A stretch of DNA of 39,548 bases, taken from a virus. Lineage: Duplodnaviria > Heunggongvirae > Uroviricota > Caudoviricetes. The notes below the pieces were generated by a model. It was not told where the DNA came from and searched no databases. It saw only the letters and a list, made by a program, of their open reading frames with translations. A program made the position numbers and the translations under genes. Shown here piece after piece: positions 3,043-5,097 of this stretch (positions within the stretch are counted from its first letter, which is position 1; each line of letters opens with the position of its first letter). The stretch lies in IMG/VR virus record IMGVR_UViG_2519899835_000008; one strand, given 5' to 3'.

Positions 3043-5097
3043 TTACGCGTTATTCACTTCCACCACGATACTGTCAATCAGTACCGGGTAAGTCGCATTT
3101 TTAGTGATATCGGTCACGCGCAACTTGTCTGCCGTAAACGTGCCGACCGAAGACTGCGACAGCATGAATGGTGTCCCGTCCTTACCATCAATGACCGGCG
3201 TCACCTCAATACTGTTGTTACCGGCAAAACGGAAGCCCAGCGTATGCCATTCGTTATTAAATGCGCCGAATGACCCCAACTTCGTGTTCTGCGCCGTGTT
3301 TCCTTTGTGATACATCACGTTAAGGTCTGTGGCATCGCTCTGTACGTAGAACGATGCCAGCAGGTTATGACCGGCATTTCCTTCCAGAGTAACCCCTTGC
3401 GGCAGGGCAGAAACCGGCCAGTACAGCGCCAGTGCGTACTGATTAGCCGTAAGCGCGCCATCGAGTTTAAAACGACAACTGACAAGACCACCTTTACCCA
3501 GCAGGTCCGCACCATTACCAGCATCATGCTCAAGGTACCAGGGGGCTCTTCCTGTTTCCTTGGTCAGTTTCATTGCCTTACCCCCGCTGGCTCCGGCATC
3601 ATCCACGATTTGAGCCTTGCCACCTCCGGCAGCCCAACCCTGTGGTGTCAACCGTCCTTCAGACTCAGATGCCCGGTAAGCAAATAGCGTACTCATCGTC
3701 GTGGTGTCTGCGGGTGGCGTGGACGGTTTTGATGGTGTATCAGGTGACGGCTTCTCATCCGGTGGTGTCACGGTCTGCCCGCGCATCAGTTCAGCCGTGC
3801 GCCCTGCATGGAGCATAATAGCTGAGGCCAGACGGTCTGAAATGACGCCCCTGCGTGCCCATGAGCTGAAATGGCTGTCACGCTGTGTCGAAACCAAACT
3901 GCCCTGGGTTCGGGATGCTGCACCGTAATACCCGACAGCCACAATATCCGGGTCTTCCGCCGGAGCATTCGTTGGCGTGCTCTGTCCATTCTCATCCGTC
4001 AGGAACGGTACAAAGAAAATTTTCTGTGCTTCCTTGCCTTTGTAGCCACCGTATACTGCCTCATATTTATCGGTGCCAGCGTTTTTCCAGTAATACGTGG
4101 TATCACCGCAAATCCACGGCACCGTGGTGGCATTTCCACTCACGCACTGCGCAGCAAGCGGAGCCAGGTCAGTTCTGAACTGCTGAACCATGGCCGTGAA
4201 TAAACTATTATGCTGCTGGCTTCCTGAGGCAAGGTCTGCCTCTCCCTGCATCCAGACCACAGCCAGAAGTTTGTTTTTCGGGTTTTTCGCCAGCGCGACT
4301 TTGGTGCGGCTTACCAGGTCCTGATACAGAGGTTTACCGGCCCCCCAGCGTGAAGAATCAGCGGAAGCACCGCTGGCCTCACTGAATGAGCCGTCGGCTC
4401 CAGTGGTGAATGCTGACCCGCCACGACAACAGGGCACCAGAAGTATCCCGGCATTCTGTGGGATATAGGGAAGCAGTTTTTTGGCAATATGCAACCCCTG
4501 ACCGACAGTCCCGTACTGGCCTTTTGCCAGATCAGCTTTCGGGTGGTTTATCCCGCTCATATCCTGAACATCATGCAGGCAGTGGTCTGCCGGAATGATG
4601 TCGTTGTATGTACACGACGTACCGTTGGGCGTTACCGTACTGCGGCGTGCCAGTTGCTTAATGCGTGGGTCCGGGCGGTCAAACGAATCCGGTAACGGCA
4701 GCCCCTCGCCGTAGGCCATGCCATTTGACTGACCCGCGAGAATGACAACAAAGTAATATTCCGGCTCTGAACTGCTGCCATTCGTGCTACCGGAAGGCCC
4801 GGCGTTATCCGGTGCATTCCAGTCGGAGGGCGTGAGCGTTCCGGCCACGTCAGATGTGATTGGAATGATGCCAGTCACGCCTGAACTGGTGATTTCTGCA
4901 CTGGGATTACCGGATACCGGCATTACCCATAATGGCTCTTTCGTGCTGAAGCGGATCACGCAGTCTGCGAAGGTGATCCCCCCTTTATTACCCGAAGGGC
5001 GGAAAGGGCTTTCAATAAATGCCACCGTGCCACCGGCAACCTTGACTGAAAACTCTCCGGGCATGGCGGAGAGCATTTTCCACTTGGAGTCTGACAT
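3043..5097 (-). CDS. Carbohydrate O-acetylesterase (SASA/DUF303, SGNH-like) with Pro/Thr-rich linker and lectin-like C-terminal domain; possible tailspike or receptor-modifying protein
   Basis: 684-aa ORF with motifs VVILAGQSNGMAYG and VVWMQGEADL matching the GQSN and WxQGE(S/A)D signatures of sialate-O-acetylesterase-type esterases; linker TPPDEKPSPDTPSKPSTPPADTTT; no signal peptide. Confidence 0.6.
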   Translation of the reverse strand: MSDSKWKMLSAMPGEFSVKVAGGTVAFIESPFRPSGNKGGITFADCVIRFSTKEPLWVMPVSGNPSAEITSSGVTGIIPITSDVAGTLTPSDWNAPDNAGPSGSTNGSSSEPEYYFVVILAGQSNGMAYGEGLPLPDSFDRPDPRIKQLARRSTVTPNGTSCTYNDIIPADHCLHDVQDMSGINHPKADLAKGQYGTVGQGLHIAKKLLPYIPQNAGILLVPCCRGGSAFTTGADGSFSEASGASADSSRWGAGKPLYQDLVSRTKVALAKNPKNKLLAVVWMQGEADLASGSQQHNSLFTAMVQQFRTDLAPLAAQCVSGNATTVPWICGDTTYYWKNAGTDKYEAVYGGYKGKEAQKIFFVPFLTDENGQSTPTNAPAEDPDIVAVGYYGAASRTQGSLVSTQRDSHFSSWARRGVISDRLASAIMLHAGRTAELMRGQTVTPPDEKPSPDTPSKPSTPPADTTTMSTLFAYRASESEGRLTPQGWAAGGGKAQIVDDAGASGGKAMKLTKETGRAPWYLEHDAGNGADLLGKGGLVSCRFKLDGALTANQYALALYWPVSALPQGVTLEGNAGHNLLASFYVQSDATDLNVMYHKGNTAQNTKLGSFGAFNNEWHTLGFRFAGNNSIEVTPVIDGKDGTPFMLSQSSVGTFTADKLRVTDITKNATYPVLIDSIVVEVNNA

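Follow-up and report, generated by a model that had tools for sequence, protein, structure and literature searches.

The stretch of DNA analysed here, a viral record of 39,548 nucleotides (IMG/VR IMGVR_UViG_2519899835_000008; hereafter the window), is a complete Mu-like prophage, and between its invertase gene gin and the com and mom genes lies an open reading frame (ORF) for a 684-residue esterase (positions 3043..5097, minus strand, ATG start, in the ORF list of the window). Residues ~110-684 of this protein can be assigned to the NanS-p family of prophage sialate 9-O-acetylesterases, and do not represent a new enzyme. Our preferred explanation, to which we give a probability of about 0.75, is that a NanS-p-type sialate O-acetylesterase is carried as accessory cargo, together with genes for DUF1378 and DUF826 proteins and a terminator, by a Mu-like prophage in elfC, at its right end. 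The enzyme itself is ordinary; what is new is its exchangeable Mu-type N-terminal module.

The family assignment is based on profile and structure matches, on phage homologues and on proteins with the domain order DUF1737-SASA-DUF6645. Pfam recognises SASA (PF03629) at residues 117-312 (E 1.5e-13) and DUF6645 (PF20350) at residues 533-649 (E 4e-67), and PHROG 143 covers residues 71-684 (E 3e-296), its match starting only at residue 71. Among Protein Data Bank (PDB) entries, E. coli NanS (YjhS; 3PT5), a 9-O-acetyl-N-acetylneuraminate esterase, matches residues 110-428 (E 5e-117), and 'NanS-p' of the Shiga toxin (Stx) phage phi24B, in its C-terminal domain (6YP6), matches residues 469-683 (E 1e-96). 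These matches bear out the original prediction, made from the letters of the DNA, of a SASA/SGNH O-acetylesterase with a lectin-like C-terminus. A tblastn search of 50,697 phage records gave 349 with a match, nearly all of them Stx-converting or lambdoid phages, and the named homologues in these records are labelled yjhS or 9-O-acetyl-N-acetylneuraminic acid deacetylase. In a large protein collection, DUF1737-SASA-DUF6645 proteins of 647-650 residues are at most 90% identical to residues ~100-684, and compared with the NanS-p family the enzyme body shows 63-90% identity. Database labels for these proteins range over 'DUF6645 domain-containing protein', 'sialate O-acetylesterase' and 'hypothetical'. 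By exact-sequence look-up, the 684-residue protein itself is identical to EHF17140 / WP_001284085 of E. coli O104:H4 str. 09-7901.

The active site conforms to the same family. The GQSN and WMQGEAD signatures already noted in the original prediction are present at residues 122-125 and 282-288 (QGE at 284-286), with RDSHF at 406-410; the SGNH block variants of NanS and NanS-p (GQSN, QGE and R-x-S-H) are laid out in PMC10462455. S124 (codon 4726-4728), Q284-E286, S408 and H409 (codon 3871-3873) are invariant in our family alignment, A1. In the lectin-like domain, four aromatic residues, Y554, Y559, Y584 and F654, were mapped by hand on the 6YP6 alignment to Y510, Y515, Y540 and F611 of vb_24B_21 of phi24B, where they are the proposed sugar-binding site (PMC10462455). 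Of the features expected in a NanS-p protein, the NanS-type catalytic domain, the SGNH block variants, DUF6645 with the four aromatics and the prophage location were all found; DUF1737 (PF08410) was matched neither in the full protein (E<=0.01) nor in residues 1-87 (E<=1).

Two points weigh against so direct an assignment. The block before the catalytic histidine reads RDSH, compared with RSSH or RASH in characterised NanS and NanS-p proteins, those of Stx phages included, and the substrate specificity is taken over from relatives that are 63-90% identical. The canonical SGNH block V, D-x-x-H, is not found, since R-D407-S-H409 puts the Asp at -2 and not at -3. D407 has S or A in its place in NanS and some NanS-p proteins, and NanS is no canonical D-x-x-H enzyme either; the family appears to work without the canonical block V Asp. 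The original prediction had been staked on a SGNH/SASA profile match and on conserved Ser, His and Asp residues; the match, the serine and the histidine are there, the canonical aspartate is not.

Comparison with the two closest known systems places the protein more exactly. Chromosomal NanS is homologous over the whole length of the catalytic domain, including GQSN, QGE and the S-H block, but has neither an N-terminal module nor a lectin-like C-terminal domain; it is a single-domain protein of ~330 residues, encoded in the nanCMS operon. The NanS-p proteins of Stx and other lambdoid phages share with the window protein the SASA and DUF6645 body, the SGNH block variants, the aromatic sugar-site residues and the lack of a signal peptide; their genes, too, are prophage-borne, probably late-expressed and followed by DUF1378 and DUF826. 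The differences lie elsewhere. Stx-phage NanS-p has DUF1737 at residues ~3-53 and a length of ~645-650 residues, whereas here an unrelated beta domain of ~82 residues and a longer linker give 684. The Stx-phage gene lies between stx and the lysis genes and relies on Q/pR' read-through, whereas the window gene is found in a transposable Mu-like myovirus, with gin on one side and com-mom on the other, and, on motif evidence, has its own Mu-type C-box.

The N-terminal module

The three-part structural reading of the esterase in the original prediction is correct (Table 1), with one boundary to be moved. Its Pro/Thr-rich linker and ~210-residue C-terminal domain correspond to residues ~436-468, a linker whose length differs between alleles in the family alignment, and to a domain of ~215 residues (469-684). 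Its N-terminal domain of ~115 residues survives as a folded unit, but one of only ~82 residues, the rest being a linker of ~30. Inspection of the N-terminus (MSDSKWKMLSAMPGEFSVKVAGG...) by eye, no signal-peptide predictor having been run, gave no hydrophobic signal sequence, in agreement with the earlier reading, and neither a lipobox nor a transmembrane segment is evident from the sequence of the esterase.

Homology to DUF1737-type NanS-p starts at about residue 105-112, inside linker 1, and the sequence before this point is unrelated (alignment A1). At the DNA level, matches to non-Mu copies stop at window ~4736-4765. Linker 1 is, on these alignments, the recombination junction with DUF1737-type alleles, and it is the usual DUF1737 N-terminus that has been swapped for the ~82-residue beta domain, the only altered part of the protein. 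The AlphaFold2 (AF2) model of this domain has a confident beta fold (pLDDT 79.5, pTM 0.69).

The domain is very restricted in its distribution. No Pfam family matches it, with the threshold relaxed to E<=1. When 1.84 billion representative proteins were searched exhaustively with phmmer, the only match besides fragments of this protein itself was one relative with 30% identity: the beginning, cut off by the contig edge, of an esterase that comes right after gin in a Mu-like prophage of Salmonella enterica. A word-index protein search with only the domain as query gave no more than three fragments, and searching a species-representative genome collection with an alignment of the domain gave no match. 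A scan of IMG/VR yielded 34 loci, in all of which the domain is fused to the esterase body, and those with enough flanking contig all have Mu-type surroundings, with gp48, baseplate J, fibre and usually gin on the upstream side and DUF1378, DUF826, com and mom on the downstream side. With two more Salmonella lineages that came from further searches, the domain forms four sequence lineages (100, ~59, ~38 and ~29% identity), all in Mu-like contexts, and the hosts found are Mu-like prophages of E. coli, Shigella and Salmonella only. Of 5,426 complete E. coli genomes, only 32 carry the sequence that encodes it.

In the domain, 13 positions are invariant (W6, G14, G22, G23, F27, P34, L56, W57, V61, G63, P65, G73 and I78). 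Between the two E. coli lineages the nonsynonymous difference (pN) is 0.24 and the synonymous difference (pS) 0.76, with synonymous sites saturated, giving a pN/pS of ~0.3, like that of the enzyme domains. The low pN against a saturated pS indicates that the module is under purifying selection, and is a constrained protein domain and not a by-product of fusion. A Salmonella Mu-like esterase (L071, 15938-18292) has 784 residues, with an extra C-terminal extension of ~100 residues past the lectin-like domain that has no Pfam family.

Genomic setting and expression

The window is Mu-type throughout, from MuA and MuB to the fibre segment; it holds Ner, MuA, MuB, Gam, Mor/C, lysis, terminase, portal, gpT, sheath, tube and baseplate genes, the invertible fibre segment, gin, com and mom. 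The order and orientation of gin, com and mom are those of the right end of phage Mu (AF083977). In Mu, gin directly precedes com-mom, as the original prediction stated, the annotation showing only Pmom in a spacer of 94 bp; here, in contrast, there is an insert of ~3.6 kb with 4-6 ORFs. The 684-residue ORF and its flanking genes are confirmed, but the esterase gene is not the sole insert that it had been thought to be, since the gin-com interval (1575-5182) also holds the DUF1378 and DUF826 genes, a 78-residue ORF (2150-2386) and two plus-strand ORFs. Its supposed accessory status stands. The esterase is absent from Mu (AF083977) and from the Mu-like contigs L069, L070 and L073 and is carried by their relative L071, so that it is optional among Mu-like phages.

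Table 1. Features of the window around the esterase gene, with the evidence for each.
Feature	Positions	Strand	Evidence
mom	683..1420	-	Mom Pfam
com	1374..1574	-	Zn_ribbon_Com Pfam
Terminator-like hairpin, 10-bp stem then T-run, right after DUF826 stop	2394..2419	-	Hairpin scan
DUF826 protein, third cassette gene	2426..2680	-	PF05696, E 4e-15
DUF1378 small single-pass membrane protein, second cassette gene	2716..2910	-	PF07125, E 1e-32
nanS-p-like gene	3043..5097	-	ORF; Pfam SASA and DUF6645; PHROG 143; PDB 3PT5, 6YP6
C-terminal lectin-like jelly-roll domain (DUF6645), residues 469-684	3046..3693	-	6YP6, PF20350
Linker 2, residues 436-468, Pro/Thr/Ser-rich	3694..3792	-	Sequence reading
Catalytic SASA/SGNH esterase domain, residues 113-435	3793..4761	-	3PT5 match, invariant columns
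Linker 1, residues 83-112, Gly/Ser/Pro/Asn-rich	4762..4851	-	pLDDT <50
N-terminal domain, residues 1-82, small all-beta (cupin-like) barrel in the place of DUF1737	4852..5097	-	AF2 model
Late-promoter-like C-box, then T-tract, 62-76 nt upstream of esterase ATG	5159..5173	-	Motif search
gin-type serine invertase	5183..5755	-	Resolvase and HTH_7 Pfam
Invertible G segment, ~50:50 position-wise chimera of both orientations	5817..7167 (centre 6492)	.	Comparison with NCCP15648

The two genes that follow the esterase gene are those that follow it in Stx phages. In the Stx2a phage LC567818 the order is stx2AB - nanS-p - DUF1378 - DUF826 - holin, the 81-residue gene of that record being DUF826 (E 4e-38), and the presence of DUF826 and DUF1378 genes between nanS-p and S has been noted before (PMC10462455). 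In the E. coli-type loci of our collection (L005-L038), DUF1378 is found downstream of the esterase wherever the sequence covers this region, including the inverted-contig case L010. Because the Stx-phage companions DUF1378 and DUF826 recur here, and are followed by a terminator-like hairpin, esterase, DUF1378 and DUF826 are best read as a three-gene cassette that a Mu-type genome has received at its right end. These companions follow the host species and not the phage type: DUF1378 and DUF826 occur in both Stx and Mu-like phages of E. coli, and in Mu-like and lambda-like phages of Salmonella the esterase is followed by DUF1353 (L071 18422-18814; L078 12450-12830; L087 12193-12582). Since the Salmonella companion is DUF1353 rather than DUF1378 and DUF826, it would seem that the enzyme body and downstream genes are exchanged among prophages of one host species, with the N-module staying with the phage lineage. 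The membrane protein DUF1378 adjoins an enzyme that has no signal peptide.

How the gene is expressed is suggested by the sequence upstream of it. The C-box listed in Table 1 reads GAATTTCCGCAAAAC. Its 10-mer YCCGCAAAWC has five matches in the window, all on the minus (transcribed) strand, where 0.71 would be expected, and two of the others occupy the places of the C-dependent Mu late promoters Plys and PI. The one at lys, GATATTCCGCAAATC, lies at almost the same distance from its ATG as does the esterase C-box and aligns with the Mu Plys box, CCATAATCCCGCACC. A 14-mer built from the esterase and lys sites, GAWWTWHCGCAAAW, occurs in the window only upstream of the esterase and of lys (29327), against an expectation of 0.01; in an independent check it is found in just the same two places in the Mu-like phage LC727881, and L071, a Salmonella Mu-like contig that lacks gin, again has it upstream of the esterase. 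A scan for the sigma-70 consensus gave no match in the 85-bp gin-esterase spacer, the nearest (9/12) being inside gin at 5225-5253. The Plys-like box, the motif common to lys and its recurrence in related phages suggest late, lytic transcription from a promoter of the gene's own, dependent on the C/Mor-family activator of the phage, which is encoded at 29326-29748. Expression of nanS-p in Stx phages is likewise late (pR') and is induced along with the late genes (PMC8065619). Against this it must be said that the C-box motif was defined post hoc, and that the two remaining matches (24991-25000 and 31971-31980, minus strand) fall inside coding regions, those of the large terminase gene and an early-region ORF.

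Several other features of the window and its relatives were seen. The prophage interrupts a fimbrial usher gene of the elfC type of E. coli, the N-terminal part of which occupies window 1-555; in E. coli NCCP15648 the remainder of the usher resumes ~250 bp past the window end (beyond 39548). Just past the esterase stop, at 2996-3035, there is a 9-bp GC-rich inverted repeat (GCCGCCGGT ... ACCGGCGGC) with flanking A-runs, terminator-like on the plus strand, which the hairpin scan missed because of its long loop. In place of mom, an ORF of ~350 residues follows com in L001 (9420-10472, LC727881-type) and in the Salmonella Mu-like L071 (19740-20792); its sequence motifs alone suggest a cytosine methyltransferase of the Dcm type. 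At 21784-21863, between the head genes G and F, RefSeq has a 'tRNA-OTHER' in the identical prophage of NCCP15648, and ARAGORN finds no tRNA anywhere in the window.

Possible roles: released enzyme, virion protein, tailspike or surface modifier

What would such an enzyme do for a Mu-like phage and its lysogen? In the explanation that we prefer, the accessory-cargo esterase would be transcribed late from its own promoter under the C/Mor-family late activator of the phage and, as it has no signal peptide, would be released when the phage lyses the cell, whether as free protein or bound to particles. Once outside, its lectin domain would direct the enzyme to sialoglycans, where it would strip 9-O-acetyl groups off mucin sialic acids, and the sialic acids, so deacetylated, could be used by the surviving lysogen population, as has been shown for Stx-phage NanS-p. 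The NanS-p enzymes of 933W/EDL933 and of O104:H4 de-O-acetylate Neu5,9Ac2 and mucin glycans, and support growth on Neu5,9Ac2 (PMC8065619). The gene body and downstream genes would recombine among co-resident prophages while the N-module remained with its phage lineage.

An extension of this explanation, which we take seriously but do not favour, is that the Mu-specific N-domain attaches the esterase and lectin parts to the capsid or tail. Particles so equipped could bind and modify sialoglycans, for retention or movement in mucus or for access to cell surfaces, though we hold this, too, to be somewhat improbable. The idea comes from phi24B, for which a 2026 preprint reports that gp84 (= NanS-p) is among the most abundant virion proteins and is proteolytically processed, with its DUF1737 forming hexamers that sit as plugs in the T=9 capsid, at its central hexons (bioRxiv 10.64898/2026.04.10.717836). 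This capsid decoration serves as an analogy only, as the N-domain of the window protein is not homologous to DUF1737.

The variety of N-termini on the same enzyme body is in keeping with such a role. When 183 full-length SASA and DUF6645 proteins were sorted by their N-termini, several short forms were found besides the main types, which give at least six alternative N-terminal modules. DUF1737 is the most frequent (n=92), and occurs in the Stx2a phage LC567818 (typed by gene length and match start) and also in a P2-like Salmonella prophage. The Mu-type module follows (n=46), in Mu-like prophages only. The remaining types are 'MKYIY...' (n=16), in a prophage with a P2-like baseplate and an invertase, directly after the fibre genes; 'METVEV...' (n=6), in a lambda/Gifsy-like prophage, directly after the side-fibre and fibre-assembly genes; 'MSQPIGKK...' (n=3), in a fibre/adhesin cluster; and an Stf-type N-terminus (PF08400, 252 residues; n=1), which follows a fibre-assembly gene at one end of its prophage. 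This last, in protein P0230 (L082, 1015-3768), makes a protein of 917 residues in which the N-terminus of a lambda Stf-type tail fibre is fused to SASA and DUF6645, and P0230 appears to be a sialate esterase borne on a side tail fibre. Comparison of the Mu-type N-domain with the Salmonella 'METVEV...' module by hhalign gave an alignment in register but not significant (17% probability, E 0.0015), and with the 'MKYIY...' module it gave nothing.

Because the N-module is exchangeable, DUF1737 is a reported capsid anchor and the module of P0230 is an Stf-type fibre N-terminus, the window protein may be carried on the virion. The Mu-type module, found only in Mu-like prophages, has been kept over ~30-100% identity under purifying selection, and the gene comes directly after the tail-fibre, assembly and gin genes, behind a late-promoter-like element; in Salmonella lambda-like, P2-like and other phages, too, the esterase directly follows tail-fibre assembly genes. 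This pattern would be expected of virion adaptors, though it does not prove that the N-modules are such, and by analogy the most likely job of the N-module would be to dock the enzyme on a Mu-type virion.

There is evidence on the other side as well. Fold searches with the N-domain gave no significant match and no link to any virion protein. In LC727881 and the IMG/VR loci, the N-domain type does not track the Mu major head protein or the sheath, and in L060 an identity of 98% for gpT goes with one of 59% for the N-domain. The only structural protein that does track the N-domain type, in a comparison of very few genomes, is a DUF2635 protein (window 17360-17638), the counterpart of Mu gp38 and a 'putative sheath terminator'. 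Nor is the N-module strictly tied to one capsid type, because DUF1737 also occurs in P2-like prophages; the possibility that each N-module belongs strictly to a single phage type was considered and is ruled out by the P2-like Salmonella prophage, in which a DUF1737-type esterase lies between the lysis genes and the tail genes R/S. The end of a prophage after the tail-fibre genes is, moreover, a usual place for unrelated cargo, and lineage-specific N-termini could equally stem from where recombination junctions happen to fall.

A more general scheme can be put forward, although with a good deal of doubt: a conserved payload of sialate esterase and lectin would be fitted with swappable N-terminal adaptors, each for a different virion architecture. 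In this scheme, which at the level of the single pairings is just as doubtful, DUF1737 would serve phi24B-type (and perhaps P2-type) capsids and the Stf N-terminus lambda-type tails. The Mu-type beta-barrel would, no less tentatively, serve Mu-like particles, and the other modules lambda/Gifsy-like and P2-like Salmonella prophages.

The original prediction went further, and saw in the protein a possible receptor-recognising or receptor-destroying tailspike that replaces a defective fibre and deacetylates O-acetylated lipopolysaccharide (LPS) or capsule of the host. This we consider very improbable. Its main argument was an abnormally short tail-fibre gene. The window and the prophage of E. coli NCCP15648 agree at 99.7-100% everywhere but in 5852-7132, where there are 414 mismatches, and every one of the 414 carries the base of the inverted orientation of the G segment. 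At the 819 positions that differ between the two orientations, the window has the forward base at 405, the inverted base at 414 and neither at 0, and its G-segment sequence is found in no complete E. coli genome (best 87%). A diverged natural allele, the other explanation that was considered for these differences, is ruled out by the fact that all 414 are inverted-orientation bases. With every mismatch so explained and no third base, the G segment of the window is to be read as the consensus of a mixed G(+)/G(-) population, and Gin, since both orientations are mixed in it, is apparently active. The premature stop, which leaves a fibre ORF of 248 residues (6934-7680), and the missing fibre-assembly ORF are artefacts of this consensus. 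In NCCP15648 the fibre has 293 residues, and the alternative C-terminal part and an intact fibre-assembly gene of 173 residues lie on the other strand.

With the short fibre an artefact, the tailspike proposal loses its main argument, and related genomes have intact S, S' and U' together with the apparently active invertase. What remains in its favour is that the gene adjoins the tail-fibre genes, that the exact protein occurs in an O104:H4 strain, whose O antigen contains internal sialic acid with reported O-acetylation (PMC9631793; PMC3303846), and that esterase tailspikes are known in other phages, G7C and the Vi phages, as cited in PMC8065619. Like the window protein, G7C gp63.1 and the Vi-phage tailspikes are phage O-acetylesterases with a modular N-terminus, in their case a virion adaptor (PMC8065619), and it is from such proteins that the tailspike proposal draws its functional analogy. 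Those tailspikes are essential and act on bacterial polysaccharide, however, whereas the window gene can be absent and its relatives have host sialoglycans as substrates; no homology between them surfaced in the searches run, which did not include a direct comparison. A tailspike or fibre would be expected to have a recognisable N-terminal anchor and to be a constant, indispensable component of its lineage. The gene is instead dispensable in Mu-like phages, and the comparison of the N-domain with tail-fibre anchors proposed in the original prediction gave no tail-fibre or tailspike anchor family in Pfam and no significant fold match. A near-identical body is found, moreover, in podovirus, siphovirus and myovirus prophages of many host serotypes, including O157, the O antigen of which is not known to contain sialic acid. 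We also know of no NanS-p family member that acts on LPS or capsule.

The original prediction's other suggestion, a lysogenic-conversion enzyme expressed in the lysogen to modify its own surface polysaccharide, can draw on the position among cargo genes at the prophage end and on the reported O-acetylation of O104 sialic acid (PMC9631793; PMC3303846), but it fits poorly, and is to be regarded as most unlikely, because the protein has no signal peptide, lipobox or transmembrane segment and thus no evident route to the periplasm or surface, and because the upstream element resembles a C-dependent late promoter and not a constitutive one, with no strong sigma-70 match in the spacer and with Stx-phage homologues that are induced with the late genes.

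Implications for NanS-p and its phages

Few cargo genes of Stx phages other than the toxin genes have a demonstrated benefit to the pathogen; nanS-p, with growth on O-acetylated mucin sialic acids, is among them. Here a transposable Mu-like phage has acquired that enzyme-lectin body, and the change is confined to the part that is reported as the capsid anchor in phi24B. In the literature library that was searched, no paper links nanS-p to Mu-like phages, and surveys of nanS-p keyed on DUF1737 or on linkage to stx would overlook the Mu-borne copies. A second lesson concerns the G segment: invertible segments present in mixed orientation can give a chimeric consensus that resembles degraded tail-fibre genes.

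Why do phages carry NanS-p? The alternative N-termini turn this into a question that can be tested, namely whether each N-module is a virion adaptor matched to its phage. If that were so, a displayed, sialoglycan-modifying enzyme would be a general trait of enterobacterial temperate phages in mucus, and might also act on the bacterial receptor layer in O104-like E. coli. More speculatively still, because the O104 O antigen has sialic acid that is reported to be O-acetylated, a virion-borne copy of the enzyme in O104 strains could meet a bacterial substrate as well as the sialoglycans of the host.

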